The notes: generated from the letters alone by a model not told the origin. A DNA stretch of 25,851 nt from Candidatus Helarchaeota archaeon (GCA_029838215.1 JALGVI010000042.1:1-25851); one strand, 5' to 3'; numbered from the stretch's first letter, positions 1-18,562 are shown. Program-made: numbers and translations.

Positions 1-1
1 C

Positions 2-460
2 AAGCATGAAGTGATTCGAGAAGGACGAGAACCCGGGGAATTTTTTTACACGTTCATTAAAAGCAAGGGACTCATAGGTAATAGGAAAAAGACAATTCCT
101 AAAAAATCAGTCCGTGCCGCTGATGATGGCTCGGATATTTTGGAAAGAGCACGATCTCTTCTTAAGAAATCGTCTTCCTCGGGACAAGAAGCTAAAAGTG
201 ACTTTCATTCCTTTTCGGGCACTTCATTTTCTCCGGAGATGAAAAGGTCCACCCAAAAAAGACCCACCTACTCCTTGACAATGTTAGAGCGGAATCGAAT
301 TGAAAATCTATTAAAAGAAATAATTGAGATTCACGCACATGTAAAATATTCAATGAAGCACATTGATGAAAGAATCGATCAAATTCAAACCATTCTAAAA
401 AAATTGAATGAACCATCGAAAAAATCAAATTCAACCAGAGAATCTTCAAAAATCTATTAA
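2..460 (+). CDS. 5'-truncated protein; visible N-terminus resembles the end of a gelsolin/villin repeat, followed by a low-complexity linker and a C-terminal coiled coil
   Basis: The frame is open from position 2 (K-H-E-V-I-R-E-G-R-E-P-G-E-F-F), so the GTG at 11 is probably internal. VIREGREPGEFF resembles the gelsolin-repeat [VI]x[EQ]GxEPxxF motif. There is a Ser/Lys-rich middle and a heptad-like tail (RIENLLKEIIEI...IDERIDQIQTILKKL). That it is coding is fairly clear; the family call is tentative. Confidence 0.55.
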   Translation, partial: KHEVIREGREPGEFFYTFIKSKGLIGNRKKTIPKKSVRAADDGSDILERARSLLKKSSSSGQEAKSDFHSFSGTSFSPEMKRSTQKRPTYSLTMLERNRIENLLKEIIEIHAHVKYSMKHIDERIDQIQTILKKLNEPSKKSNSTRESSKIY

Positions 461-465
461 TTAAA

Positions 466-1434
466 TTGGGCAATGAAACAGGAATTAATTTTGGATATTA
501 TAGAGAAAATTTCGTGAAAAAACGCATAAAATCAAGAATGATTCGGCTAAATCTTGAAGACCCCATTTCTTATTTAAATTACATTAATGAAACGCCGGGT
601 GAAATTGAAAAGTTCTTGAACGGCTTTACAATCAACACGTCATATTTTTTTAGGAATCTTGAAGTTTACGAACAGATCGAGAATTTAATCTATTATTGCC
701 TTAAAGGCGTTAATATTTTGGCTAAAAAACAGAAAAAAATCATGAAATCAGAGAACAAGAAAAATCAACGTTTATCATCAAGAGAAAAAGAAATGAATAA
801 CACCATCTTCACCAAGGAAATACCATTAGAAAAATTATCCATTTTTAAAAAATTAAACAACAAATCAATTAATGCAAGAATAAATATATGGTCCTGTGCT
901 TGTGCTTCTGGTGAAGAACCATATTCGATTGCAATGTTATTAGATACATTAAAGAAAAAGTTTCGCAATTTACCTAATTATAATATTGTTGCCTCTGATG
1001 TTGATCAGGTTGCACTTGAAAACGCACGAGAAGGCATCTATTTTGAGGAATCCGTTAAAGAAGTTCCCGAGTATTTCTTGCAACAGTACTTTACAAGAGT
1101 AAAAATTTATCCATACGGATTAAAATACAAAATAGATAACAAAATAAAGAAACAAGTTCACTTCATTCAAGAAGATGTCACGAAAAGACACGAGAAAACG
1201 ACTAAATATGACATAATTTTTTGCAGGTATTTTTTGATTTATACGGAAAAGACATCACGATTTAAGTTGATACAAATCCTACGGAATAGATTAGCCGATG
1301 GAGGATTACTAATTCTGGGAAAGACCGAAACATTGTTCAACTTGAATCATGATTTGAAACTTATCGATACCAGAAACCATATATACATGAAGACCAAAAC
1401 CTTTGAAGGCGGAGGAATAAATCGTGCCAATTAA
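466..1434 (+). CDS. cheR: Chemotaxis protein-glutamate O-methyltransferase CheR (true start probably upstream of 466)
   Basis: TINTSYFFRN, IWSCACASGEEPYSIAM, IVASDVDQVAL..AREGIY, YDIIFCRYFLIY and GGLLILGKTE match CheR motifs. It overlaps the cheB start. There is a Lys/Asn-rich insert of about 55 aa. Confidence 0.93.
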   Translation: MGNETGINFGYYRENFVKKRIKSRMIRLNLEDPISYLNYINETPGEIEKFLNGFTINTSYFFRNLEVYEQIENLIYYCLKGVNILAKKQKKIMKSENKKNQRLSSREKEMNNTIFTKEIPLEKLSIFKKLNNKSINARINIWSCACASGEEPYSIAMLLDTLKKKFRNLPNYNIVASDVDQVALENAREGIYFEESVKEVPEYFLQQYFTRVKIYPYGLKYKIDNKIKKQVHFIQEDVTKRHEKTTKYDIIFCRYFLIYTEKTSRFKLIQILRNRLADGGLLILGKTETLFNLNHDLKLIDTRNHIYMKTKTFEGGGINRAN

Positions 1435-2551
1435 TGTATTAGTTGCCGAAGATTCCTCTTTTCAAAGGAAAGTCATTTCTGAAATGCTCTCGAAGCATGA
1501 CCTCATTAGAGTTGTTGATGTTGCAAGAAATGGACTTGAAGCCGTAGAAAAAGTGAATCAGCTTCATCCCGACGTGCTTGTTTTGGATCTCATAATGCCA
1601 AAAATGGATGGCTTAACAGCGTTAAAAGAAATCATGAAAACCAATCCAATTCCTACCATAATATTCTCAGTTCTGGACCCGAAATCGCTTGATAATTCGG
1701 TTCAGGCTCTCATCATGGGTGCATTTGATTACATCATAAAACCGGGTGGCGTGTGGAAAGTCGAGTTACCTAAATTCAAGGATGAATTAATTTCAAAAGT
1801 CTTAATGGCGGCAAAATCTCAAGTCAAACAGGTTCACGGCTTGAAACGGGAAAGGAAGCAACAACAAGATAAAATAATTACAGAAAAAACAACAGGAAAT
1901 GGCAAGGTAAAAAAGTCCAAATCGGTTTCACTTCCCAAATTACCACCTGTCCGCATCAAAAATTTAAAAAACGGAATCATTGCAATGGGTGCCAGTGTTG
2001 GCGGACCGAGAACATTAAAAATCATTTTAAGTAAAATTCCAAGCGATTTCTCATCTCCAATCTTGATTGTTCAGCACATAAACCCTTATTTCGTTGATGA
2101 ATTTGCAAAGTCGTTGAGCAGAGAATGCAAGATAACAATTAAAGTTGCAGAGAATGAAGAATATTTGGTTCCCGGAATTGCATATATTTCTCCTGGTGAT
2201 TATCACGTGATAATTTCCGCCAAGAACGATAGACCTTGCATAAAACTCCTTCAAGGAGAGCCGGTTCATTTTTGCATGCCTTCCATTGATGTCCTATTTT
2301 CCTCCGTGGCATCGACATTTAAGACTAGAGCTCTTGGGATACTTCTAACGGGAATGGGAGAAGATGGTGTAATGGGTTTAGGGATGATTCAGCGAAGTGG
2401 AGGGAAGACAATTGCCGAATCTCAAGAAACGGCAGTTCTTTATGGCATGCCGAAATCTGCAGCCGAACGCGGCGTGGCAGATCTCATCCTGCCCAATTAT
2501 AAAATAAAGGAGGAAATGATCCTATTCTCCAAAAAGATCAGACGAAGTTAA
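1424..2551 (+). CDS. cheB: Chemotaxis response regulator protein-glutamate methylesterase CheB
   Basis: N-terminal receiver domain (VLVAEDS, DVLVLDLIMPKMDG, DYIIKP). The C-terminal methylesterase has the catalytic Ser (GASVGGP), His (IVQH) and Asp (LTGMGEDG), plus PSIDVLF and LYGMPKSA. Confidence 0.96.
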   Translation: MPINVLVAEDSSFQRKVISEMLSKHDLIRVVDVARNGLEAVEKVNQLHPDVLVLDLIMPKMDGLTALKEIMKTNPIPTIIFSVLDPKSLDNSVQALIMGAFDYIIKPGGVWKVELPKFKDELISKVLMAAKSQVKQVHGLKRERKQQQDKIITEKTTGNGKVKKSKSVSLPKLPPVRIKNLKNGIIAMGASVGGPRTLKIILSKIPSDFSSPILIVQHINPYFVDEFAKSLSRECKITIKVAENEEYLVPGIAYISPGDYHVIISAKNDRPCIKLLQGEPVHFCMPSIDVLFSSVASTFKTRALGILLTGMGEDGVMGLGMIQRSGGKTIAESQETAVLYGMPKSAAERGVADLILPNYKIKEEMILFSKKIRRS

Positions 2552-2556
2552 TAGCT

Positions 2557-3240
2557 TTGACAAGAACCGAAAAAAAATTTAAAAAATATAAGAATCGAGC
2601 CATTAATGCGGGATTTAGCTCTCACGTTCATCATCAAGACAAAAAGGTAATTCTTCCCATCGGTCATTGCATTTACATTAATTCAGATAGTGTATTTAAT
2701 GAAAAAGGCGTCAAGGAGATCGCAATCTATGGATTGGGATCTTGTATTGCTTTAATCCTAAGAGATCATGAAAACAAAATGAGCGGAATGTCCCATATTT
2801 TATTACCAAGCCATGAAAAACAAAGCGGAGCTATGATAAAATTTCCTCACAAATTTGCCGATCTCTCCGTAAAGGAATTGTTGGAGAAACTAATGCAGAT
2901 GGGTGCAGATAAAAATAAAATCAAGGCCATCATTATCGGCGGTGCGAATATTTTTAATAATCCAAACTTTGCAATCGGGACGGAAAACCTTAAGGTTGTC
3001 AGAAAAAAGTTGCAAGAATTGAATATCCGTATATTTCGAGAGATGGTCGGAGGAAATGTTGGTCGCGTGGTGGAATACGACCTGGATAAAAATGAAATTC
3101 GCGTTAGGAGATCGGGAACAAAAGAAGTCCAAATAATAAACTTGAATGAATCCTATCCCTGTAGAAATGTCAATAGAACGACCGTCCAGAATTTAGATAG
3201 ACCAGAAGTGCAGATAGGTGAAGTAGGTGATAGCAGATGA
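2557..3240 (+). CDS. cheD: Chemoreceptor glutamine deamidase CheD
   Basis: GLGSCIALILRD (catalytic Cys), GMSHILLP (His), KFADLSVKELLEKL, KAIIIGGANIF, IGTENL and EMVGGNVGRVV. Its stop overlaps the cheC ATG (ATGA at 3237-3240). Confidence 0.92.
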   Translation: MTRTEKKFKKYKNRAINAGFSSHVHHQDKKVILPIGHCIYINSDSVFNEKGVKEIAIYGLGSCIALILRDHENKMSGMSHILLPSHEKQSGAMIKFPHKFADLSVKELLEKLMQMGADKNKIKAIIIGGANIFNNPNFAIGTENLKVVRKKLQELNIRIFREMVGGNVGRVVEYDLDKNEIRVRRSGTKEVQIINLNESYPCRNVNRTTVQNLDRPEVQIGEVGDSR

Positions 3241-3923
3241 ATAAGAGTAGGAAGCGGGTGAAAAGCAACAGAGATAACTTAACGTTAACTCCCGAACAAT
3301 TAGATACTTTAATGGAACTCGGAAATATAGGAACGGGAAATGCAGTCACGGCTCTTTCAAAATTATTAAACAAAAAAATAGAAATGTCTTTGACCGATGT
3401 ATCCATCATTCCATTTTGGAAAATCTTAGAAGAGTTTGAAGGTCCGGAAACCCAAGTTTTTGGTATTTATTCAGATATAAACGGTTTTGCGAACCTATCA
3501 ATCCTGCAATTCTTCACGAAAAAATCCACCATAGAAATGATGAATAACCTGCTCCACAAAGATAGAATCATTTCTGAAAAGGTAACAAGTCTAAAGGATC
3601 TAGATGAATTCTCGATCAGCACGATCACGGAAATTGGCAATATATTAGCAGCACATTTTGCAAATTCTCTGGCAAGTTTAATGAAAACAGTCCTAATACC
3701 CGAAGTCCCAGTAGTGGCACTTGACATGATAGCCACGATATTAAATTCGCTTGTAGCAAAATATTCTTTTATCTCAGATTACTTGATAATTACAAAGACC
3801 AACATGAGTATTGAAGAATTTCATTTAGAAGGAAGCATTTGTTTCATCCCGGATTTGAAAACGTTGGAAACACTTTTCAAAGCCATAAACGTGGAATCAA
3901 ACCTAAATTCTAACTATAAATAA
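3237..3923 (+). CDS. cheC: CheY-P phosphatase CheC
   Basis: Two ExxN active-site motifs (LMELGNIGTGNAVTALSKLL; ITEIGNILAAHFANSL) and a P.V..DM motif (PEVPVVALDM). It is translationally coupled to cheD. Confidence 0.92.
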   Translation: MNKSRKRVKSNRDNLTLTPEQLDTLMELGNIGTGNAVTALSKLLNKKIEMSLTDVSIIPFWKILEEFEGPETQVFGIYSDINGFANLSILQFFTKKSTIEMMNNLLHKDRIISEKVTSLKDLDEFSISTITEIGNILAAHFANSLASLMKTVLIPEVPVVALDMIATILNSLVAKYSFISDYLIITKTNMSIEEFHLEGSICFIPDLKTLETLFKAINVESNLNSNYK

Positions 3924-3935
3924 AGGCGAGAATAT

Positions 3936-4943
3936 TTGAACACGGCAAATCCCAATTCCAATATAAAAGAATTGATTTCACACGAACATCTAAAGGAGTT
4001 ACTCGGAAATCTCCTAAGTTTACTTCCACATGTATTTGCTACTTTTATTGCAGATTTTGATGGTCTAATAATTGCACAGGCATCACGCAAGGATTTGGAT
4101 GAGAGCATCATTGGAGCCTTGACCGCTACAATTGATACGGCACTCAAAAGAATAAAAAGAATTGCAGACACATCTTTAGGGAGTGGCTCATTTGATATGG
4201 ATGAATACCGCCTGATATTTGTAGAACTCGGGGGACACACGCCAGCCATCTTCATAGTAGTGACGGACGTTTATTCTGACATTGATGATTACATTCTTTA
4301 TACATATTTGATAGCGGAAAAAGTATCGCTCATTTTAAATAACCGGAAAACATCGCTTTCAATACCCGAATTCATAATAGAAACAAAATTAGAGACAAAA
4401 ACAAATGGTCTCACGAGGAGAGGAAAAGATCTCATCATTAAGATAATGGTCTTGGGAGATACAAGGGTTGGAAAGAGTGCTCTCATAGAAATGTTCACGA
4501 ATGGTGAATTCCACGATAATTACATACCGACCGTTGGGATATCCATTGGTGAAAAAGAATTACAGATCTCAAAATCCATGAAACTCAAATTTCATTTTTT
4601 TGACATGTCTGGCTCTAAAAGCTTCGCAAAAGTCAGGAAAATGTGCTATAAAAATGCGGGTCTTGTATTCGTGATTTTCGATTTTACGAACATCAAGACA
4701 CTTGAAAATGCAAGGAAATGGATAAACGAATCGAGACAATTTCTTGGAAATCAAGACGTCAAGCACGTGCTCATCGGAAATAAGATAGATCTTGTTTCGG
4801 ATCGCGCGGTTATTCGGGAAAAAGCAAGAGAAATCGCCAATGAAAATGAATGTTTGTATTTTGAAGCATCTGCACAAACAGGTGAAGGCGTGGACGAAAT
4901 TTTCACGCTCTTGGCAACAGATATTCTCAACGAGAAAATATAA
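3936..4943 (+). CDS. Fusion of an N-terminal roadblock/LC7 (MglB-like) domain and a C-terminal Rab/Ras-like small GTPase
   Basis: Residues ~15-135 fit the roadblock pattern (FIADFDGLIIAQ..LDESIIGALTATI..LIFVELGG..AIFIVVTD). GTPase motifs are G1 GDTRVGKS (4455-4478), G2 YIPTVG, G3 DMSG (from 4602), G4 GNKID and G5 EASAQ. It starts 12 nt after the cheC stop with TTG. Confidence 0.88.
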   Translation: MNTANPNSNIKELISHEHLKELLGNLLSLLPHVFATFIADFDGLIIAQASRKDLDESIIGALTATIDTALKRIKRIADTSLGSGSFDMDEYRLIFVELGGHTPAIFIVVTDVYSDIDDYILYTYLIAEKVSLILNNRKTSLSIPEFIIETKLETKTNGLTRRGKDLIIKIMVLGDTRVGKSALIEMFTNGEFHDNYIPTVGISIGEKELQISKSMKLKFHFFDMSGSKSFAKVRKMCYKNAGLVFVIFDFTNIKTLENARKWINESRQFLGNQDVKHVLIGNKIDLVSDRAVIREKAREIANENECLYFEASAQTGEGVDEIFTLLATDILNEKI

Positions 4944-5021: not shown

Positions 5022-5096
5022 TTTTTTTTTTCATCAAAATGCAACGAAAATTATTGCCCGATTTTCAAAATGAAAGTTAGTCGCGTGTTTTTTTTT
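5022..5096 (+). terminator. Oligo-T tracts (T10 at 5022-5031, T9 at 5088-5096), likely archaeal termination signals for the che operon
   Basis: Long T runs lie 80-150 nt downstream of the last operon gene. Archaeal intrinsic termination uses oligo-T tracts. Confidence 0.45.
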
Positions 5097-5542: not shown

Positions 5543-5926
5543 TTAACTGTTGGTCATAGAATGCTCGTTACCTGAACGACCTTCTTTCCTAGCACTCAAT
5601 AATTGATTGAATTGTCTCTGATATTTCGTAGATAATTTTACCACTTTCTTTATCATTTCTTCTTTTAAATCAGTAGATAGATTCGTCACTTTTATATAAT
5701 TTATCAGGTCATTTTGACATTTATTGATGGGTTCGAGCAGGATTAAAGCAGAGTTGGCGTTTGAATTAAAAGAAGAAGATAATTCTTGGAAGCATTTTCT
5801 ATAGATGGTGTCGAGGTATTTAAGCATTTGAATGATCCTTTGTTTTGACGTTCTATTTAGTTCACACGTTTCAATGAAAGCAATTAAATAATTCTTGTCC
5901 TTTTCAAACAGGTCTTTGGAATTCAA
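5543..5926 (-). CDS. Hypothetical all-helical protein (127 aa)
   Basis: TTG start 4 nt after the longin gene stop. Amphipathic-helix composition; no recognisable motif. Confidence 0.65.
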   Translation of the reverse strand: MNSKDLFEKDKNYLIAFIETCELNRTSKQRIIQMLKYLDTIYRKCFQELSSSFNSNANSALILLEPINKCQNDLINYIKVTNLSTDLKEEMIKKVVKLSTKYQRQFNQLLSARKEGRSGNEHSMTNS

Positions 5927-5930
5927 GCTA

Positions 5931-6341
5931 TCACACTTTTTTTTTGTTTAAAATTGTCAGAAAATTTTCAGGGAGCATGAAATTTTCAAATTTTGTTCGG
6001 TTTCCATTCCATTCTTTTAGGATATATCCATATTCGGAAAGGAATGCTCCAGAAATCTCCGAAAGAATCGATTCGATCATGTTTAAGTCGTGATCGCCAC
6101 AATCACAGGAGATGCATACTATGATGTCATTAGCACCTGTAAAACAATAATAGATGTTTTCAAATTTTATCATCGATAATTTCTTTTTATATAAATCCAG
6201 TCCGATGTTGTAAATTGCACTGAGGTAGGATGAAATCAAGTCAGTTTCGGCTTTCTTAACATCGGAGCCACTGATGGAATTGAATTCAAACGACTTCAAG
6301 CAAATTCCGTCTGCAGTGAAGATAAATAAATCGTATATCAC
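5931..6341 (-). CDS. Longin-like domain protein
   Basis: The pattern IYDLFIFTADGICLKSFEF...LISSYLSAIYNI...MIKFENIYYCF...IIVCISCD...ILSEISGAFLSEY...WNGNRTKFENF matches the stand-alone longin domains common in Asgard archaea (compare AP sigma/TRAPP/SRX longins). Confidence 0.72.
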   Translation of the reverse strand: MIYDLFIFTADGICLKSFEFNSISGSDVKKAETDLISSYLSAIYNIGLDLYKKKLSMIKFENIYYCFTGANDIIVCISCDCGDHDLNMIESILSEISGAFLSEYGYILKEWNGNRTKFENFMLPENFLTILNKKKV

Positions 6342-6559
6342 GGGATTTTCAACTTCATTAACGGGATTAATTGTTTAATTTTAATTTGAGATACTCGTAC
6401 TGAAAGTGTTATTTGAAATTTGCTTCTTTTTTTTACCAATAAAAAAAAACAAAAAGGCAATAAATTCGTCATTTAATTGCAAAAAAGTTACAAAATCGGA
6501 TTTCAATTTGACAAATTATTTATGATGAAATCCCTGCAATTAATTACAAATGCATGTTT

Positions 6560-7249
6560 TTAATCGGTCTTGGTTTTTGCCTGAATCGTTATTCCGTTTT
6601 TCGTAATGATATAAGGAAATGGTTCTAATGGATGGTAGGTACCTCTCATCTTCACGATGGTCATTTCTCTAGATATTTTTCGATCTTTTCGCGCGTATTC
6701 TAGGAGAATCGTTCCATCTGCAATAAACGATTCATGGCAATGAAAGTCACCGACACCGTGTAGTTCTGCGGTCATTAATGCCTGAATCTCATTTTCCTTG
6801 ATATATTTTGAAAGTTCAAACATGAAAGTTCGATATTCTTTAACATCAGTTAAAGAGTAACTAATAGGATTTATGGGGTCGATGACGATGCGATTGATGT
6901 TATAGCTCTCGATTTTGTCGATAAAAAAAGATAAAAATTCACTTCCTTTTCGGAATTTCTTGATCTCATCATCCACGTCTATGAGAAAAACCCTTTTTCC
7001 GATGGCTTTCGAATTGAAGAACCAGAAGGTCGACCCATATTTGATTAGCGATGAAACGGGTTCAGAAAGCGTTGAAAAATAAAGACCCTTTTCTTTATGC
7101 TTAGCACCTTCAAATAGATATTGAAACGAAAAAATGGTCTTTCCGACACCGGATTGTCCTATTACCAAGACTAGTGAAGGAAAAATGAAACCCCCTTCCA
7201 ATTTATCTTTCAGTCCCGGAATACCAGGATCAATCCTAATAACTTCCAT
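6560..7249 (-). CDS. Single-domain KaiC/RAD55-like RecA-superfamily ATPase
   Basis: GIPGLKDKLEGGF, Walker A GQSGVGKT, QYLFEGAKHKEKGLYFS, Walker B RIVIDP, ESFIADGTILL, REMTIVKMRGTYH and C-terminal ITKNGITI. Confidence 0.9.
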   Translation of the reverse strand: MEVIRIDPGIPGLKDKLEGGFIFPSLVLVIGQSGVGKTIFSFQYLFEGAKHKEKGLYFSTLSEPVSSLIKYGSTFWFFNSKAIGKRVFLIDVDDEIKKFRKGSEFLSFFIDKIESYNINRIVIDPINPISYSLTDVKEYRTFMFELSKYIKENEIQALMTAELHGVGDFHCHESFIADGTILLEYARKDRKISREMTIVKMRGTYHPLEPFPYIITKNGITIQAKTKTD

Positions 7250-7264
7250 CTAAAATTTACCAAA

Positions 7265-8050
7265 TTAAATTATTTTAAAGATTTCTCTCTCATATTCACC
7301 TAAACATGGACAACCCGGACATTTTGAATTGATGTAGTTCTCGCAATTAGAACCGCATCTAGTCGCACAACAACTTGTTCCCAGTGCTGAAGAATCGTCG
7401 TTAAAAATTAAATGTTTTGGACTAAATACGAGGTAGATGGGATACATTTCTGGATGTATGGAAACTACCGTGCATTCTTTAACTCTGGTATCTAACTGAA
7501 ACTTTTCGATCATGCACACCATCTGGTTATTATGGTTACCACCATATGACTTTTCAATACCAAAAAGAGTCATTAGACTATTTTGGGCAATATTTTTGGA
7601 AATATTGAATACTCTTGGGCAACTCTGAAGATCGTTGTATAATTCATTAAGATCCTTCAAGTTGTTAAATAATAATTTTAGGAATACCAAATCTAAATTT
7701 AGTTTTTGATAGTTCACACCCACGAAAAATTGGATTTTCGAATGTTGTTTCATCATCTCAATTTTTTTCTTAACGGTTTGTCGAGAAAGTCCGAGTTGTT
7801 TGGCAATATCGATGTAAGATTTTCTCGGATTTGTTACGAGTTCACTCAGAATTGCAATTTCTTTTGGAGAGAATACGTCTTCTTTATTCGTCATGCGCGG
7901 GCCGAGTTTAATTTTTCTTTCTTGCTTTAATTTTTCCTGCACTATTGATTTTTCGATTTTTTGTGGAATATCCTGATTGAAATATTGCCATGTATCCAAA
8001 ATGGATACCAGAAAATTACGGGATTTCTTCACGCCTTTACGCTTCCTCAC
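7265..8050 (-). CDS. Lrp/AsnC-family winged-helix regulator with a C-terminal Cys-rich domain
   Basis: HTH EIAILSELVTNPRKSYIDIAKQLGLSRQTVKKKIEMMKQ, an effector-like middle region, and the tail CCATRCGSNCENYINSKCPGCPC. The GTG start directly abuts the receiver gene stop (8051-8053). Confidence 0.8.
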   Translation of the reverse strand: MRKRKGVKKSRNFLVSILDTWQYFNQDIPQKIEKSIVQEKLKQERKIKLGPRMTNKEDVFSPKEIAILSELVTNPRKSYIDIAKQLGLSRQTVKKKIEMMKQHSKIQFFVGVNYQKLNLDLVFLKLLFNNLKDLNELYNDLQSCPRVFNISKNIAQNSLMTLFGIEKSYGGNHNNQMVCMIEKFQLDTRVKECTVVSIHPEMYPIYLVFSPKHLIFNDDSSALGTSCCATRCGSNCENYINSKCPGCPCLGEYEREIFKII

Positions 8051-8449
8051 TTACGGCATCCCCTTTTTATTTAACAATGTAATGGCGTGATCAACTATTT
8101 TAATCACGTCATCAATAGAAATTGGCTTGCTAATGTAGTCGTATACTTCGGATCTGATGGACTCAATCAGGGTAGGCATGCTCGGGTAACCCGTGATTAC
8201 GATAATCAAAGCATTTTTGTTTTGTCCTTTAATGAGCTTAATCAATTCAAGCCCATTCCCACTTGGAAAGACCAAATCGATGAAGTATATGTCAAATTCA
8301 TCCTTTTCAACAATTTCTTTTGCCTTTTTAAAATCCGCCTCAGATCTTACGTAATATCCCTCTTTTTCAAGAATCCACGTAAGAGATTCACAAATGGATT
8401 TTTCGTCATCAACAATGAGAATCTTTACCATTTTTCTCACACCACTCAT
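8051..8449 (-). CDS. Stand-alone response regulator receiver (CheY-like) domain protein
   Basis: KILIVDDE, phosphoacceptor YFIDLVFPSGNG, ITGY and conserved Lys in YISKP. It has an ATGA overlap with the kinase stop (8446-8449). Confidence 0.93.
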   Translation of the reverse strand: MSGVRKMVKILIVDDEKSICESLTWILEKEGYYVRSEADFKKAKEIVEKDEFDIYFIDLVFPSGNGLELIKLIKGQNKNALIIVITGYPSMPTLIESIRSEVYDYISKPISIDDVIKIVDHAITLLNKKGMP

Positions 8450-11400
8450 AATTCTTCTTTGAATAATTTATTATTTTCATTTTTTAAAGGTAAAAATACC
8501 GAAACGGTGGTTGATTTCTTCCGTTTACTTTCAATGTTAATTTTTCCTGAATGTGCCCGAATTATTCCATACGAAATGCTTAATCCCAAACCCGTTCCGG
8601 GAATGCTTTTTCCTTTTTTAGTCGTAAAAAATGGATCAAACACCTTAGAAAGGTCTTTCTTTTTGATGCCAATCCCATTATCCGTGAAGGAAATTCGTAC
8701 ATATTTCGTATTCTTTTTCTTTGAAAGAGAAGCTTTAATCGTGATTTTTCGATCTTCTTCCAGCTTTTCATCAACGAACCTTTCATCGATTGCGTCTATC
8801 GAATTCTGCAAGATATTAATGAAAACCTGTTGAATTTCCTGAACTTTTAAAGGTATGAATGGAAGATCATCGGGAACGTCTAATGTGACTTCAATTTTCG
8901 ATTTCCTCAATTTTGGTTGTAAAAGCGATAGTGAAGCGTTTATTGGTTTCAAGATACTTTCTATTCTAAAAATTCCGGGATCACGTCGGGCGAAGGACAA
9001 TAAATCAGCCACGATTTTCGAGATGCGTTTTCCTTCTTCAATTATTTGCGTTAAGAAAGAAAAAGGTTTGACTTCCAAATCAAGCCTGCTCAATTCTTTT
9101 AATTCTTCTTTTACAATCTCGGCATAATTGATGATACCCATTAGAGGATTGTTTATTTCGTGTGCCACGCCTGCCGCAAGTAGTCCTATGGAAGCCAATT
9201 TTTCGGATTGCACCAACATTTCTTGCGTGTTTTTCAGTTCTAGAAGAGTATTTTCTAATTTTTTGGCTTCATTCTTTAGTTCTTTGGTTTTCAATTCAAC
9301 TTCTTTTTCGAGATCTTCCATGTAATTCTTTCGTGCTTCTTCAAGGGCTTTTCTTTCGGAAATGTCCCTTGCTAAATACAGACCTTTAATTTTCCCATCT
9401 TTATCCTTGAACTGTTTCCCTTTTATTTCTAGCCAAATGTAATGTCCATCCTTATGGCGGGCAAGGTATTCACGGGGTTCATCACCCATTTTTGCTAGAA
9501 ATTCGGATTGATTTCCAAATTTGATTCTGTTAATCTGTACAGGATGGATGAAATCGCCTCCGAATTTCCCAATTAGATCTTCACTTTTATATCCAAGAAT
9601 TTTGAGGTATATTTCTTCGTTGATATATTCATATCGTCCGTGCTCATCAAATATCGCAATTAAATCATTGGCATTTTCAGATATTAAACGATACTTTTCT
9701 TCGGATTGTCGTAGTTGTTCTTCAGCCATCTTACGAGATGTGATATCTTCAATCATGTGTTGTACATAATTTTTTTCGCCCAGTTTCAGGAGGGTACTTT
9801 GCACTTTAACCCAAACGGTATCGCCCGTTTTAAGTTTAAGCGAAAATTCAAAGGGATCAATTCTTGCACCCTGAACGATCGTTTCAAATCGATCTTTAAT
9901 ACGTGGGATCATGTTTTTGGGAAGCAATGAGATTGCATTCTCAAACGGCCCGATTATTTTTTCTTTTTTAACTCGGAAGATTTGTTCACACGCGCTATTC
10001 ATTTCTAAGATATTCTTGTTCCTATCGGTAATCACGATACCGAGCGTGGATTGTTCGAATAGATATCTATAACGTTCTTCCGATTCCTTGAGTTTTAGTT
10101 CGGCACGTTTTCGTTCTATCGCATTGACGAAAATATCTGCCACGTATTTAAGCAACAAGACATCCTTCTCGAGCCACTCCTTTTTTTCTCCAAAATCGCC
10201 CGAAAAAATCAAAGTTCCAAACAACGTCCCTTTGTGAACCATTGGAATTAACAACACGGGACGGAACCCATACTTTTTTAGCCAATCGTTAGCTCCTGTA
10301 GCGTCAGCAGGAACATCGGCAAGGCTTCGAATTATAATAAACGCTTGACTCCGCAACATCGTTGACAAATAAGGAAAGTCATCAATTTTTATTTCATTTA
10401 GAGGAATATAAGAAAGGTCATCTTCATTTACCATGTATTCATAACTTTTTATTCCAATTTCGGGGTTGTCTTTCGGAAAGGTAAGGATTGCACAATACTT
10501 GCTATTCAAATAGAGCGTCAGGACTTTTAAAGCATTATTTATTCCTTCATCGATTTCCTCGATTGGTAAATTAATGAATTCGGTTGAAACTCTCGATATG
10601 AACTCCTCTAAATCGAGTCGATATTTTAAAGCATCTTCTGCCTGTTTTTGGTCGGTGACATCAATGGCAATGAAGATGGCAGCAACAACATTCCCTTCCT
10701 GCTTGATTGGGGCTATGCTGTTAAGATACCAGCGTAATTCCCCATCGGCATTCTGGGATGCAGTTCGGAATCGGGCTTTTTCACCATTTTTAAATACAGA
10801 ATCTAATACACTTTTTACTTCTTCACGATATTTGGGCTCAATGTACGTGTAGATCTTCCTCCCCAAAAATTCTTCGGGTTTGACGCCGATTCTTTCAAAA
10901 CTTACTTCGGATCGATTTATTTGAAGGATGGTACCCTTCGAGTCTAGCGTGCATATCATTACGGGAGCATTTTCAACTAAAGATCTCCACCGCTCTTCCG
11001 ATGCTTGCAATGCTAATTCTGCTTGTTTTTGGTCGGTTATATCCATGAAAAAGGAGAATAACGAATCTTTTCCTTCAAATTGAATGATCTTGGAAAATAC
11101 ATTCACCCATTTATTAACATTAGATTTCGTAATCATGCGGTACGTGTATTGAATGGGAATCGTAGGATCTTTGAGAAACATCTTCTTGAGATTTTCCAAT
11201 GCAATCATTCGATCTTCGGGATGAATCAAATTTAGAAATGAATTTGCAGACCATTTTGATACATCTTCAAACGAGTACTCCGTGATTTGTTCCAATGCTT
11301 TATTTGCATACTTAACAATTCCATCTTGAATTATGGAAATTCCCATTATCGATTGTTCGGCGATCATGCGGAATTTTGCTTCCGATTCCCGTATTTTCTG

Positions 11401-14400
11401 CTGTGCGTTCATTTTTTCTGTGATATCTCTTGAAATAACGAGCAATTTAGTCTTGCCCGATTTATCCGTGAATGTTTTACCCTTAGATTCAATCCAAATG
11501 TAATATCCATCTTTATGTTTCACGCGGGATGATATCGTCAGATCACCAATTTCAAACACTTTTTGAAAACTAACTCTGATGTCTTCAACTTCACCAGGAT
11601 GAACCACGGATAATGCCGATTTTCCAAGCAAATCGACATCAAAATAGCCGAGAACTCGCTTGAAAGTTTCTTCATTTATATATTCAAACTCAAACTTATT
11701 GTTAAAAATGATTATCAAATCGTCAGCAGCCTCGGAGATGATTCGGTATTTCTCTTCAGATTCTGCCAATTTAAGTTCCGTCTTTTTTCTATCGGATATG
11801 TCTTGGAGAATGAATTGAAAGAATTTTTTTCCTGCAAAGTTCACCAAAGAGCCATTCGCATTTACCCAAACAAAGGCACCATCTTTTCTATTAACTGCAA
11901 ACTCGATGGGCTTTGATTTCTCTCCTTTAATGACACGCGAAATGTTCTCTTGTAATTTTTGTAATGTCTCTTTTGAAACCACCCCTATTTCGCGAAATAA
12001 TTTCCCAATTATTTGTTCTTTTTCTTGTCCAATTATTTTCTGCGCTGCAGGATTTAAATCCAAGATCTTGCCATTCATGTCCATGATTCCAATACCAGTA
12101 GGAGATTTTTCAAATAGAGCGTGGAATTTTTCTTCAGATTCTTGGAGTTTTTCTTCGGCGTGTTTTCGCTCAGTTATATCCAATAAAGTGCCATGAACGC
12201 CTACAAATCGCCCTTCTTTTCTGATGATGCTGTAAAAAGATTCCACCCAGCAAATTTTGCCAGATTTTGTTTTTACTCGAAATTCAAAAGGTGAAATGAT
12301 ACCCTTAAGCATTTTTTTCAAGTGCTTTATCCCTTTAGGAACGTCTTCTGGAACAATGAAATCAGATATCTTTTTTCCAATGACTTCAGAAGGTTTGTAT
12401 CCAAATATACGTTCTATCGCAGGACTAATATATGTAATGACTTGATTTTCATCATGCGAATAGATGATCTCGTGAAGATTCTCTACAAGCTCTCTATATT
12501 TTTCCTCAGATTCTTTTAATTCCCGTTCAGCTCGTTTTCTTTCCGTTATATCACGCACAATTGAAAGCACGAAAATTTTATCCTTGAGTTCAACGAGATG
12601 AGAATTTATTTCGACAGGTAATCGTGATCCATTTTTTAAAACATGTTCCATTTCGAACGTGTTCTCACCGTGAATCAGCAAATCTCCCATTATGTCTTGG
12701 ATTTTATCCATCATTTCGGGTGCATCAATATCACTAGGAGTCATTTTAAGAAATTCTTCTCTTGTATAACCATATCGCTTACAGGCTACATCATTAATTT
12801 CAACAAAAATTCCACGATTTCCATCATCTCGAAGTTCATGCACGAAAATGGCATCGTTTGCACTGTTGAATAGCGTTTTGAAACGTTCTTCGGATTCTTT
12901 TGTTCGTTGTTCTGCAGATTTACGCTCCGAAATGTCCCGCGAGATGAGTAGTGCTACCTTTTCATCTCCAGCACCTTCATATTGAATTCCTCTCACTTCA
13001 AACCAAAGATATTTTCCATTCTCATGACGAATACGAAGCTCAACCTTTCCGTGTCCAACCTCCAAACCTTTTCTAAAAGCTTCTACGGCGAAATGAAGGT
13101 CATCAGGATGAATGAAAGACGTGGCTTTGTTCTTTAATAATTTATCCATTGAATACCCCAAAAGCCGCACGTGAGCAGTATTCACGTATTTCAATCGAAA
13201 GTCAAGATCAATTAATGCAATTAAATCATTAGCATTTTCGGTTATTAGTCGATATTTTGTTTCTGATTCTTTTAATTCCTGCTCCGCCTTTTTTTGTTCT
13301 GTTATATCCGTCAATGAACCGTGCACGCCTATAACTTCACCATTTTTCAGTAATCTTCTGTTAATACTTTGCACCCAACGAACTTCATTGGAGCTTGTGT
13401 TCATCCTGAAATCAAAGGATTTCACCTTTCCTTCTTTAATTCTTTGAAATGTCTTTTCAGCCGTCGAAGAATCTGTGAGGTGAAGAAATTTCGTGAATGA
13501 TTTCCCGATTATCTCCGATGATTCATATCCCAATAATTTTTTGATGATGGGACTAACATACGTGATTTTTCCGTTTAAATCGCAAGAATATATGACTTCA
13601 TTCAGGTTTTCGATCAAGTCACGATACTTTTCTTCGCTTAATCGTAGAGCTTTTTCGGTTTTTGATCGTGCTAGGGCATTTCCAATTTGTAACCCAATCG
13701 TTTCGAGAGCAGTCCGAGCCGATAACGTAATGGTTTCAATTTCATGAGATGAAACGTTAAGAGCACCTATGATTTCATCTTCATGCAATAATGGAATGAT
13801 GGCAATCGCCCGTAATCCCTCTTCTATTTGTCTCTCATCCCTTTGGACCATGATTTTTTCATATTGAGTGTAAATAGGACGACCTTTTAACATGATTTTT
13901 GAATTTGGCGAATTTATTTCATAATGTGATACAGCAGCTACGAAAGCGGATGACAATCCAGCATGGTAGACGAGGTCAAGACATCCAGATATTTCGTCAA
14001 AAATATATACTCCGCCACAATCCATTCCCGATACCTTGAATGCGGCTTCGAGGCATAAACGGAATTTTTCATCAAGACTCTTTGCATTATCTAGTCGAAG
14101 TGCTAAATCTCGCTGTTCACGCATTAGGTCCTGTGCTTGTTTTCTTTCTGTTATGTCTAAGAAATTCAAAAAAATGGCTTGTCTCGTTTCATATTTTATG
14201 ATTTTGGAATAGATTTCTATCCATTTTACCTTTTTAGATTTAGTGATGATACGACAGAAATATGGTAAGTCAAGGTTGTCTTTTCCTTTTTCTCTTTCAC
14301 GCAACCGTTTTAATGTTTGGATTCGATCATCAGGATATACAAAATTGAGAATTTCTTTACTCGTTAGAGAAAGAATTTCCTCTCTTGAATATTCAAAAAT

Positions 14401-14598
14401 CTTGCTACAGGCTTCATTTACGTATTTTATCAAGCCATCTTGAAATATTAAAATTCCCATTATCGTCTGTTCCGTGATTGACGTGATTAAAAGTTGGGGA
14501 TCAACCGCCTGTTTTTCCATTACCATGTTTCGCCAGCCATCTTCTTCCCTTTTTTCCAATGGATTTAGCGTGCTAGCAATAATTTCACCCAATAACAT
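8446..14598 (-). CDS. Cytoplasmic multi-sensor histidine kinase: about 11 PAS/PAC and 2 GAF domains, then HisKA and HATPase_c
   Basis: Repeated SEE[KR][YF]R..E...DI[TS]ERKxAE units were counted by eye. GAF-like blocks are at SGMDCGGVYIFD..IAIIPLL..IGALNV and at YLNSKYCAIL..VLLIPMVHKGTLFGTL. H-box AAGVAHEINNPL, N-box QVFINILQNSIDA, DNGIGI, FDPFFTTK and GTGLGLSI are present. No transmembrane segment is evident. Confidence 0.95.
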   Translation of the reverse strand: MLLGEIIASTLNPLEKREEDGWRNMVMEKQAVDPQLLITSITEQTIMGILIFQDGLIKYVNEACSKIFEYSREEILSLTSKEILNFVYPDDRIQTLKRLREREKGKDNLDLPYFCRIITKSKKVKWIEIYSKIIKYETRQAIFLNFLDITERKQAQDLMREQRDLALRLDNAKSLDEKFRLCLEAAFKVSGMDCGGVYIFDEISGCLDLVYHAGLSSAFVAAVSHYEINSPNSKIMLKGRPIYTQYEKIMVQRDERQIEEGLRAIAIIPLLHEDEIIGALNVSSHEIETITLSARTALETIGLQIGNALARSKTEKALRLSEEKYRDLIENLNEVIYSCDLNGKITYVSPIIKKLLGYESSEIIGKSFTKFLHLTDSSTAEKTFQRIKEGKVKSFDFRMNTSSNEVRWVQSINRRLLKNGEVIGVHGSLTDITEQKKAEQELKESETKYRLITENANDLIALIDLDFRLKYVNTAHVRLLGYSMDKLLKNKATSFIHPDDLHFAVEAFRKGLEVGHGKVELRIRHENGKYLWFEVRGIQYEGAGDEKVALLISRDISERKSAEQRTKESEERFKTLFNSANDAIFVHELRDDGNRGIFVEINDVACKRYGYTREEFLKMTPSDIDAPEMMDKIQDIMGDLLIHGENTFEMEHVLKNGSRLPVEINSHLVELKDKIFVLSIVRDITERKRAERELKESEEKYRELVENLHEIIYSHDENQVITYISPAIERIFGYKPSEVIGKKISDFIVPEDVPKGIKHLKKMLKGIISPFEFRVKTKSGKICWVESFYSIIRKEGRFVGVHGTLLDITERKHAEEKLQESEEKFHALFEKSPTGIGIMDMNGKILDLNPAAQKIIGQEKEQIIGKLFREIGVVSKETLQKLQENISRVIKGEKSKPIEFAVNRKDGAFVWVNANGSLVNFAGKKFFQFILQDISDRKKTELKLAESEEKYRIISEAADDLIIIFNNKFEFEYINEETFKRVLGYFDVDLLGKSALSVVHPGEVEDIRVSFQKVFEIGDLTISSRVKHKDGYYIWIESKGKTFTDKSGKTKLLVISRDITEKMNAQQKIRESEAKFRMIAEQSIMGISIIQDGIVKYANKALEQITEYSFEDVSKWSANSFLNLIHPEDRMIALENLKKMFLKDPTIPIQYTYRMITKSNVNKWVNVFSKIIQFEGKDSLFSFFMDITDQKQAELALQASEERWRSLVENAPVMICTLDSKGTILQINRSEVSFERIGVKPEEFLGRKIYTYIEPKYREEVKSVLDSVFKNGEKARFRTASQNADGELRWYLNSIAPIKQEGNVVAAIFIAIDVTDQKQAEDALKYRLDLEEFISRVSTEFINLPIEEIDEGINNALKVLTLYLNSKYCAILTFPKDNPEIGIKSYEYMVNEDDLSYIPLNEIKIDDFPYLSTMLRSQAFIIIRSLADVPADATGANDWLKKYGFRPVLLIPMVHKGTLFGTLIFSGDFGEKKEWLEKDVLLLKYVADIFVNAIERKRAELKLKESEERYRYLFEQSTLGIVITDRNKNILEMNSACEQIFRVKKEKIIGPFENAISLLPKNMIPRIKDRFETIVQGARIDPFEFSLKLKTGDTVWVKVQSTLLKLGEKNYVQHMIEDITSRKMAEEQLRQSEEKYRLISENANDLIAIFDEHGRYEYINEEIYLKILGYKSEDLIGKFGGDFIHPVQINRIKFGNQSEFLAKMGDEPREYLARHKDGHYIWLEIKGKQFKDKDGKIKGLYLARDISERKALEEARKNYMEDLEKEVELKTKELKNEAKKLENTLLELKNTQEMLVQSEKLASIGLLAAGVAHEINNPLMGIINYAEIVKEELKELSRLDLEVKPFSFLTQIIEEGKRISKIVADLLSFARRDPGIFRIESILKPINASLSLLQPKLRKSKIEVTLDVPDDLPFIPLKVQEIQQVFINILQNSIDAIDERFVDEKLEEDRKITIKASLSKKKNTKYVRISFTDNGIGIKKKDLSKVFDPFFTTKKGKSIPGTGLGLSISYGIIRAHSGKINIESKRKKSTTVSVFLPLKNENNKLFKEEL

Positions 14599-16543: not shown

Positions 16544-18562
16544 TTAACTCTTCACCACCGGAATCATTAACGTTCCATCAATTAAGGCTTCGAATGTATT
16601 GTTTCGATAATAGCGCAAGCTCATTGCGTTATTCTTGCATACACTCGGACAGGCTCCACACCCACGGCACTTGATTTCATCGACAACGGCATGTCCGTTC
16701 TCTATTGTAATGGCAGAGTAGGGGCATATTTGCACGCAAAGTTCACACGCACTGCATAGTTTGTAATCACAAACAGCTCTGACCAGTTCAATTTCATACT
16801 TGCCTTGTGACATCAATATTGAGGCGGCTTGTGCTGCACCCCGTCCTTGGTTCACGGAAGCATCAACCGCTTTTGGTCCTTGTGCAAATCCTGCGATAAA
16901 CACGCCTGGTGTCTTTGTATTAATCGGATTAAGACGGGCATGAAATTCCTTGAGATATCCGCTTGGACCGCGTTCCATTTTCATGATAGCGGCAATTTCA
17001 TCGGTTCCTTGAGAGGGATAGGGGGTCGTGCTCAAAACTACCAAGTCTGCTTCGTATTCGGAGACACCATCCTCGGTTTCCAGGTAACAAATGAGATTTT
17101 TTGTATCGGGATCTTCTTCGACCATTCCAACATTAGCACGAATGAAAGTAATGCCTTCGTTTCGCGCGCGAAGATAATATTCTTCGTAGTCTTTTCCCGG
17201 CGTGCGTATATCGCGATACGAAACAACGATTTCAGCGTCAGGATATTCGCTCAAGACAAGTTTTGCATTCTTGATCGTTACCAAGCAACAAACTCCTGAG
17301 CAGAATGCATATTCTCCTTCTTTTGTTGACCGAGCACCAACGCAATTGACCATCATTATTTTCTTAGGATGCTTTCCGTCGGATGGACGAACCAGATGTC
17401 CTTCGGTTGGCCCATTTGGATTAAGAATTCTTTCAAGTTGTATTTGATTTAGCACGTTATCGTAAATTCCAAGTCCGTATTGTGGCGTGACCTTGTTGTA
17501 GATGTTCCATCCCGTTGCAACAATGATGGTACCAACAGAGACCGTCTCAGTTTCCGGTTCTTGACTCATGTCAATCGCAGAAACTTCACACACTCGACTG
17601 CACGCATAGCAATGAACGCAGAAGTCCATGTCAATATTTGCCTTGGCAGGAACTGCTTGGGCAAAAGAGATGTCAATGCACTTTCGCGGGGAAAGCCCAT
17701 ATTGGAACTCATTTGGAAGAACGATGGGACAGACTTCAAAACAAGCTCCGCACCCGTTACAAGCATCCGTAACATACCACGGATTCTTTTGAACCGTGAT
17801 ATTAAAATTTCCAACGAAGCCCGATACGTCTTTTACTTCCGTATTTGTCCAAAGCGTGATGTTTGGATGCCGATTGACTTCAAGCATGACAGGACCCAAA
17901 ATTCAGATGCAACAATCATCTGTTGGAAATATCCTGTCCAATCTCGCCATGGTTCCACCGATTGTCAAATCCTTCTCAATGAGATATACGTGATATCCTT
18001 CATTAGCAAGATCCAACGCGGCAGAAATCCCTGCAATGCCACCACCAATGATGCAACACTCGTTCTTCACGTTTACGGTTCTCGTGGGAACTTTTTCCAA
18101 AAGGGCTGCACGATTGACAGCTCCGGAAATGAGTTCCATTGCTTTTTGTTGCGCAATATCGGGTTCTTTCATGTGCACGAATGATACGTGTTCTCGGATA
18201 TTTAAGAATTCAAGATTCCTCGGCGGCACGTCCGTTTCTTTTAGAACGGCATGGAAAACCGGTTGATGTGTTTTTGGCGTGCATGCACAGAGAACGACTT
18301 TATCAAGGTTTTCTTTTTCGACGTGTTCCTTGATAAAAGCCGCACCCGGTTCCGAGCAAAGTGCAACATTCTGGTCGGCATAATCAACATATGGTAGTCC
18401 TTTGGCATAAGTCACCAGTTCGTCAACGTTTAAAACGCCTGCAATGTTTTTACCTCAACGACAGATGAAAACCCCAATACGAGGTTCTTCATTCTGTTCG
18501 GTATCTGCTACATTTTTTTGTGCGATCACCATTCTTAATACTTCCAATGCAATATCTTTCAT
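16544..18562 (-). CDS. hdrA: Selenoprotein heterodisulfide reductase subunit A (FAD/Fe-S), 672 aa with Sec36 and Sec220
   Basis: One reading frame joins ORF-track pieces 17903..18415 and 16544..17899 to an upstream segment: RIGVFICR-U-GKNIAG (TGA 18455-18457), FAD motif IIGGGIAGISAAL, FPTDDCCI-U-ILGPVM (TGA 17903-17905), CNGCGACFEVCP, VNCVGARS, YAFCSGVCC and CSACELCVQICP. An AGGAG ribosome-binding site lies 5 nt before the ATG at 18562. Confidence 0.94.

Follow-up and report, generated by a model that had tools for sequence, protein, structure and literature searches.

The whole stretch of DNA that was analysed (the window; 25,851 nucleotides, GCA_029838215.1 JALGVI010000042.1:1-25851) is contig C110 of the genome of a Candidatus Helarchaeota archaeon (G000), whose completeness is 94%. 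The region under study was found to be the 3' half of the single chemosensory (che) cluster of this genome, and its last gene encodes a che-dedicated fusion of a Roadblock domain with a Rab-like small GTPase. Nucleotides 1-4943 of the plus strand contained six open reading frames (ORFs), all in the same orientation. The features from cheR onwards are given below; the ORF starts are the longest-ORF starts, and protein positions are in amino acids (aa).

466-1434, plus strand: cheR, methyltransferase of methyl-accepting chemotaxis proteins (MCPs) (Pfam CheR PF01739, E 1.8e-44; PF03705, E 4.2e-8)
1424-2551, plus strand: cheB, REC domain and methylesterase (PF01339 CheB_methylest, E 1.2e-55; PF00072, E 3.8e-21)
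2557-3240, plus strand: cheD (PF03975, E 8.7e-24)
3237-3923, plus strand: cheC, CheY-P phosphatase family (PF04509, E 7.5e-21, two stretches)
3915-3922, plus strand: TATA-like box TATAAATA, read from the sequence and overlapping the cheC stop
3936-4943, plus strand: Roadblock-Rab-like GTPase fusion, 335 aa, protein P0001, clade A (Pfam Ras family, E 2.3e-39 at aa 169-331)
3951-4337, plus strand: Roadblock/LC7 domain, aa 6-134 (AlphaFold2 secondary structure; PF03259 in orthologues)
4425-4937, plus strand: Rab-like G domain, aa 164-334 (motif reading, Pfam and fold)
5022-5031 (T10) and 5088-5096 (T9), plus strand: likely archaeal oligo-T terminators, 79-153 nt past the GTPase stop

The cheR and cheB genes overlap by 11 nucleotides (nt), followed by a gap of 5 nt between cheB and cheD, an overlap of 4 nt between cheD and cheC, and a gap of 12 nt between cheC and the GTPase gene. 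The ORF and Pfam calls agree with a preliminary description of this DNA, in which four che genes, overlapping or at most 12 nt apart, ran into a Roadblock and GTPase gene. The same description had placed oligo-T terminators only after the GTPase gene. The longest runs, T10 and T9, do follow its stop codon, but runs of T6-T7 were also found within cheR (645-651, 1217-1222 and 1230-1235) and within the GTPase gene (4595-4601), and the statement is kept for the longest runs only.

Linkage of the GTPase gene to che genes

The homologues of the fusion protein were Asgard proteins of 313-339 aa. Each genome of the class contained several Roadblock-GTPase paralogues, and 50-130 small GTPase candidates per genome were counted at first look. 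In a quick IQ-TREE tree of 62 proteins, two clades, A and B, were split by a branch with 100% SH-aLRT support. The window protein, a member of clade A, was 40-53% identical to the other members of its clade and 30-34% identical to clade B.

In our study, we found that every clade-A locus examined was linked to che genes (37/37; 34 species genomes including the window's own, and three further metagenome-assembled genomes, MAGs). The first 29 foreign clade-A loci all had Che genes within 1.5 kb, and further linked loci were found in G147, G282, G274 and G249 and in the NCBI MAGs GCA_011365055.1, GCA_048938205.1 and GCA_048941805.1. Che genes were absent within +-3 kb of all 20 clade-B loci. Wherever a third paralogue, about 440 aa long, and the che cluster were both found, they lay on different contigs. 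An adjacency confined to this genome would have counted against the preliminary description; the neighbourhood survey found it at every clade-A locus examined, and it is far beyond chance. The GTPase very probably belongs to a chemosensory cluster of Lokiarchaeia as a conserved part dedicated to it.

In the class survey of 161 genomes, clade A was found in about 34, all of which contained che genes. A CheD match was absent from 100/161 genomes, and among these clade A was present solely in G250, G147 and G282, which are incomplete (69-88%) and in which other che genes adjoin the clade-A gene.

The linkage spans many Lokiarchaeia genera and is kept through about six gene orders. The commonest order was cheR-cheB-cheD-cheC-GTPase-cheB2, where cheB2 is a second cheB gene. 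The order lacked cheB2 in the window, at the loci of P0003 and P0004 and, by blast matches, in G249. G169 had the order cheR-cheD-cheC-REC-cheB-GTPase-cheB2, G250 had gelsolin-cheR-GTPase, and genus g27 had gelsolin-GTPase. A GTPase-cheB2 pair alone, directly downstream of an A-type ATPase operon and away from other che genes, was found in G162 (L036) and G275 (L041) by Pfam and in G150 (L040) by blast matches alone; GTPase and second CheB travel as a two-gene unit in three genera. The CheB2 proteins of these pairs were 440-530 aa long, their REC and methylesterase domains being set apart by a long insert. The gap between cheC and the GTPase gene, 12 nt in the window, ranged between 3 and 23 nt in most relatives measured and was 53 nt in one.

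In 17 genomes of genus g25 (alignment A6), a GTPase-cheB2 spacer of 70-80 nt was conserved. The spacer contained an invariant TATA(A/T)ATT motif, followed by CACTACTATTTAT and then by GGGAGAT ahead of the TTG start of cheB2, and it resembles a promoter and leader specific to cheB2. Since cheB2 has its own TATA box and Shine-Dalgarno (SD)-like motif, the GTPase gene is probably the last gene of its own transcription unit in the relatives too.

The idea that cheR and the GTPase gene are lost together was rejected at the genome level, as G206 and G190, which lack the GTPase in their cluster, have CheR elsewhere. Frames of about 700 aa with both CheR and CheD domains were found in G190 (C2:205666-207534) and G206; many Lokiarchaeia genomes have comparable frames, also about 700 aa long, with a CheD match and located away from the main che cluster.

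The Roadblock and G domains of the fusion protein

The N-terminal 165 aa of the window protein alone gave sub-threshold Pfam matches, Robl_LC7 at E 0.16 (12.2 bits; cut-off 23) and MAPKK1_Int at E 0.02. The orthologous N-domains matched PF03259 in 22/22 cases at E<=1 (best 5.6e-7), and precomputed PF03259 matches were present on seven homologues. A profile of the Roadblock N-domain had CvnB5 (E 0.23) as its sole match among PDB sequences. The AlphaFold2 model of the 335-aa protein, built with the orthologue alignment A2, had a pLDDT of 81.7 and a pTM of 0.81. In this model aa 6-134 followed the alpha-beta-beta-alpha-beta-beta-beta-alpha order of the Roadblock topology at a pLDDT of about 80-90 (helix 6-29, strands 33-40 and 45-50, helix 56-77, strands 83-87, 92-97 and 104-110, helix 120-134), and a low-confidence linker (aa 148-162) led to the G domain (aa 164-334). 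The matches of a wide fold search (VIA) with the full model were filled by the G domain. The orthologous matches, the modelled topology and the Ras family match together bear out the Roadblock and small GTPase fusion of the preliminary description, with the Roadblock domain of the window protein by itself below threshold.

The G domain contained the G1 GDTRVGKS (4455-4478), G2 Thr199, G3 DMSGS (4602-4616), G4 NKID and G5 SAQ motifs. The G174, G179, K180, T199, D223, G226, N282, K283, D285 and S312 residues were invariant in both alignments, and A313 was invariant in A2, the alignment of clade A, and nearly so in A1. The nearest Foldseek matches of the G domain were Rab5, Ypt51, Rab27, Rab33 and Rab8 (TM 0.88-0.91, 26-34% identity), and the VIA fold search gave Rab3C (Z 26.1), followed by Rab32 (Z 25.1) and Rab28 (Z 24.6), so the label Rab-like, given earlier from the sequence, is upheld by the fold. 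The C-terminal Cys prenylation motif of eukaryotic Rabs was absent from the window protein, which ends in ...ATDILNEKI; a missing C-terminal Cys is expected for archaeal homologues.

The catalytic Gln of switch II (Ras Q61/Rab Q67) was substituted with Ser227 in the window protein. It was absent from 30/30 clade-A proteins, where L, S, I, V, K, A or F (mostly Leu) was found instead, and from the A2 consensus, whereas clade B retained DLAGQ wherever the motif was read. This loss, specific to clade A, points to neofunctionalisation. Switch I contained an invariant Pro198-Thr199 and no Arg. Several of the best structural matches of the G domain were Rab Q-to-L mutants of the 'locked-on' type. Because the switch-II Gln is missing throughout the clade, hydrolysis is probably slow or non-canonical; we infer GTP binding and a conformational switch, with hydrolysis that is either slow or dependent on a partner supplying catalytic residues. 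The window protein may therefore not cycle as a classical switch. Replacement of the P-loop Gly12 was also considered as a catalytic defect and was dropped, since Rabs normally lack Gly at that position, as in the P-loop GESAVGKS of Rab5.

The joined 14-gene cluster

The end of contig C69 (11.8 kb; L043), in reverse complement, was 100% identical to nucleotides 1-114 of the window. The two contigs therefore join into one 14-gene che cluster ending in the GTPase, in the order MCP-like, X (longin/roadblock), CheW, CheY, CheA, DUF11 protein, Y, CheW~CheC, gelsolin-domain protein, CheR, CheB, CheD, CheC and GTPase. The genes of C69 are all on one strand and end with a 131-aa ORF truncated by the contig end. 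The only CheA gene of the genome lies on this contig, with one CheA per genome; the genome also contained a single CheB (one genome match), three MCPs and one MCP-like gene. The less familiar members of the cluster were as follows.

L043:9436-10272, minus strand: X, 278 aa, no Pfam match, upstream of cheW; fold with tandem longin-type and roadblock-type domains (pLDDT 72.7)
L043:2622-6284, minus strand: DUF11/CLIPPER-type protein, 1220 aa (670-1220 aa across clusters), after cheA
L043:1718-2596, minus strand: Y, 292 aa (about 280-285 aa in clusters), no Pfam match, before cheW~cheC
L043:361-1683: CheW~CheC fusion of the window's own genome, 440 aa
Window 2-460, plus strand: gelsolin-domain gene, 3' part (orf0), its 5' part being the truncated 131-aa ORF on C69

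The fold of X matched AP mu/sigma longin domains, Fuzzy-Inturned, Mon1-Ccz1, TRAPP, Ragulator and a Lokiarchaeal Roadblock-Longin protein (E 4.5e-5 to 1e-3). Its look-alikes in a structure atlas were weak Roadblock/longin leads (0.77-0.82), and its profile gave no match among PDB sequences. The profile of the gelsolin family (A3) matched villin (2.8e-9), the Thor ProGel structure 7c2f (4e-9) and Heimdall/Loki 2DGel in the PDB. The gelsolin gene was found directly upstream of cheR in relatives and was present in nearly all clusters of the same type, and the DUF11 protein and Y were kept in every same-type cluster seen.

The gelsolin-domain protein (window 2-460; L032:5532-6086) consisted of a domain of about 100 aa, a variable linker and, at the C-terminus, a conserved helix with an E..H..Y motif. 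A CheW~CheC~CheC fusion was a constant member of the cluster, with 657 aa in G188 (L032:3439-5412).

Search for a conventional output

The presence of an archaellum had been left to be checked in the preliminary description. No match to archaellin (PF01917) or CheF (PF04283) was obtained in the window's own genome or in any of four relatives, of which one has an estimated completeness of 100%; the positive controls matched. With neither protein detected in the window's own genome, a target other than the archaellum is needed. The idea that che clusters lacking the GTPase carry CheF or an archaellum instead was rejected, since CheF was found in just 1/161 class genomes.

The four relatives were also without a T2SSF match. 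In the window's own genome, a T2SSE-like ATPase (733 aa) was found beside a borderline T2SSF-like membrane protein (525 aa) at G000:C23:41870-45884 (L080:5870-9884). A small Ras-like GTPase gene was also present, about 1.7 kb from this pair.

Previous studies reported chemoreceptor arrays and che genes in Lokiarchaeia, with the output not known (PMC9834061), and crawling of Asgard archaea via actin-driven protrusions in a paper that is silent on chemotaxis and Roadblock (PMC13716822).

Proposed role and alternatives

We propose, at a probability of roughly 35%, that the GTPase is an output-side or polarity switch of the Che phosphorelay. In this mechanism the GTPase gene is probably co-transcribed with cheR-cheB-cheD-cheC, and the Roadblock domain probably serves to dimerise the protein or to dock it on a longin/roadblock partner. 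The GTPase would act on the Che output side as a long-lived GTP-state switch or adaptor. It would receive its signal from a REC protein, either CheY-P or, in relatives, the second CheB, and, together with the gelsolin-domain and longin/roadblock proteins of the cluster, would pass it to machinery other than an archaellum, for example that of cell polarity or of actin-based protrusions. The presence of the genes for these two proteins in the cluster supports the output role. A complex prediction of the GTPase (A2) with X (A4) scored 0.30 vs the mark of 0.32, which speaks neither for nor against binding.

A GTPase output had already been suggested in the preliminary description, and it holds in part: the conserved linkage, the undetected archaellin and CheF and the gelsolin and longin/roadblock genes are in its favour, whereas the missing Gln and several features of the gene neighbourhood are not. 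The following observations weigh against an output role. The GTPase was missing from clusters of the same type, with gelsolin, X, Y and DUF11 genes, in at least four genomes, so it is not indispensable; in three of these (G206, G190 and G183) cheB2 comes immediately after cheC, and the fourth is G152. Its gene is placed in the adaptation block (cheR-cheB-cheD-cheC-GTPase-cheB2); in the split cluster of G188 it lies with the adaptation half and not with CheA/CheY, and in family f6 no neighbour of it is more constant than CheB2. The clade-A gene was absent from G137, presumed to be Ca. L. ossiferum, the species whose chemoreceptor arrays were imaged. The che cluster of G137 (L070; C1:1193800-1213799) is of another type, 28-33% identical, with the order CheW-CheY-CheA-CheB-CheW-CheC-CheD-CheY and no gelsolin, X (longin), Y or GTPase genes. 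P. syntrophicum, like Ca. L. ossiferum, appears to be without a cluster of the kind found here. The TATAAATA box at the cheC stop could be an internal promoter, or a chance occurrence in DNA of 35% GC. The T2SSE/T2SSF-like pair may represent a type-IV-filament system, which would make a pilus-type target possible in the window's own genome.

The position of the gene would also suit an accessory of adaptation or of the receptor array, in which the GTPase regulates or localises CheB2, CheC/CheD or CheR, or positions or assembles the array, and takes no part in output. We regard this as a tentative possibility. Bacterial che operons encode nucleotide-dependent positioning proteins of a comparable kind, ParC/ParP and PpfA. 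The constant place of the GTPase within cheR-cheB-cheD-cheC-[GTPase]-cheB2, its stay with the adaptation half in G188 and the persistence of the GTPase-cheB2 unit apart from the cluster (G162 and G275; G150 by blast matches) all agree with such a role, and the existence of the system without the GTPase in some genomes is what would be expected for a modulator. However, CheB2 is missing in three cases where the GTPase is present (the window genome, P0003 and P0004), and in genus g27 the GTPase gene follows the gelsolin gene with no adaptation gene adjoining. The conserved TATA box and SD-like motif of cheB2 also mean that co-expression is not required, and we know of no small GTPase acting upon Che adaptation enzymes.

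It is improbable that the GTPase is a feedback or input element that reports a cellular state (GTP level, membrane or cytoskeleton) into the chemosensory pathway and so tunes adaptation. The protein contains no sensor domain, and the proposal is speculative, with the same evidence as the other readings. The GTPase gene does adjoin adaptation genes, occupancy without the catalytic Gln would track nucleotide availability or exchange and not a GAP-timed cycle, and Roadblock/longin platforms sense metabolic state in Rag/Ragulator (PMC10933270 for the Asgard context). A functionally unrelated passenger that just happens to lie in the same transcription unit or neighbourhood as the che genes is very improbable. 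The dozens of small GTPase genes in each Asgard genome make some chance adjacency expected, but linkage was found at 37/37 clade-A loci vs 0/20 clade-B loci and persisted through the different architectures; clade A was found solely in genomes with che genes, and its clade-specific Gln loss indicates specialisation.

The output role can be extended to a wider proposal, that the bacterial-type chemosensory array of many Lokiarchaeia signals not via an archaellum but via this hydrolysis-poor GTPase with gelsolin-domain and longin/roadblock proteins and thereby steers actin-based protrusions or polarity. We consider this extension unlikely, although if true it would connect a prokaryotic Che pathway to a GTPase/actin module of eukaryotic type, in the archaea most closely related to eukaryotes.

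Comparison with known systems

The window protein is not a member of the MglA, Rag or canonical Rab family. Naturally hydrolysis-poor small GTPases include Rab24, with Ser at the Gln position, and Rnd/RhoH. The window protein resembles them in the replaced switch-II Gln and differs in lineage and context.

The Frz-MglA/MglB system of Myxococcus xanthus likewise combines a Che-type pathway with a small Ras-superfamily GTPase and a Roadblock protein, for movement without a flagellum-type rotor (PMC4316618, PMC10329633). REC proteins are the expected link in this likeness, which is here a working analogy resting on synteny. In M. xanthus mglA is not near frz (PMC4316618), whereas here Roadblock and GTPase, the products of separate genes in MglA/MglB, are joined in one polypeptide encoded within the che cluster. 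The G domain is also Rab-like, with an invariant Pro-Thr in place of the switch-I Arg finger of MglA, and lacks the catalytic Gln.

The Roadblock-GTPase domain architecture of Asgard archaea has already been described (Tran et al. 2024, PMC10933270; LokiRagO, PDB 8yl2), and architectures fused to Roadblock or longin domains were classed as Rag-like (PMC10933270). The same study reported that the small GTPase genes of MK-D1 are generally not in operons with regulators, and it says nothing of a link to che genes. Each genome has several paralogues of this architecture, the window protein being one of them, but clade A differs from the described fusions in its Rab-like fold, its che specificity and its missing catalytic Gln. 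Rag/Gtr with Ragulator shares the covalent joining of a G domain to a Roadblock domain and the presence of Roadblock/longin partner proteins. Here, however, the domain order is reversed, with the Roadblock domain N-terminal; no PF04670 Gtr1_RagA match was found, and Ras/Rab is the best family.

In euryarchaeal chemotaxis, CheA/W/Y/B/R/C/D and CheF act on the archaellum switch. The Lokiarchaeial cluster shares the core Che proteins, CheC and CheD among them, and MCPs, but CheF and archaellin were not detected in the five genomes searched for both, and extra conserved genes encode the longin/roadblock, DUF11, 280-aa Y, CheW~CheC~CheC, gelsolin-domain and Roadblock-GTPase proteins.

Among the papers available, the literature search found none combining Asgard, chemotaxis, Roadblock and GTPase or describing this cluster. 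The 14-gene join, the che linkage of clade A, the clade-wide missing Gln and the negative result for archaellin and CheF in five genomes are new here. A GTPase orthogroup found only with che genes, beside gelsolin-domain and longin/roadblock genes, is a concrete and testable candidate for the missing output link of the Che pathway, and bears on the origin of eukaryote-style GTPase-based polarity and motility signalling. Should the protein prove to serve adaptation or the array instead, a chemosensory system with an integral small GTPase would still be a novelty in Che research.

Other genes of the window

The minus strand at 5543-14598, converging on the che cluster, contained two small ORFs without a Pfam match, a KaiC-like ATPase of 229 aa, an HTH protein, a stand-alone REC protein and a 2050-aa histidine kinase with GAF and multiple PAS domains. 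Large PAS/GAF kinases likewise follow the che cluster in GCA_048941805.1 (L069). Further along the minus strand, at 16544-18415, a 170-aa FAD-binding ORF and a 451-aa 4Fe-4S ORF were found in one frame, split solely by a TGA at 17903-17905 (...DDCCI-TGA-ILGPVML...), which may encode selenocysteine in an HdrA-like protein.

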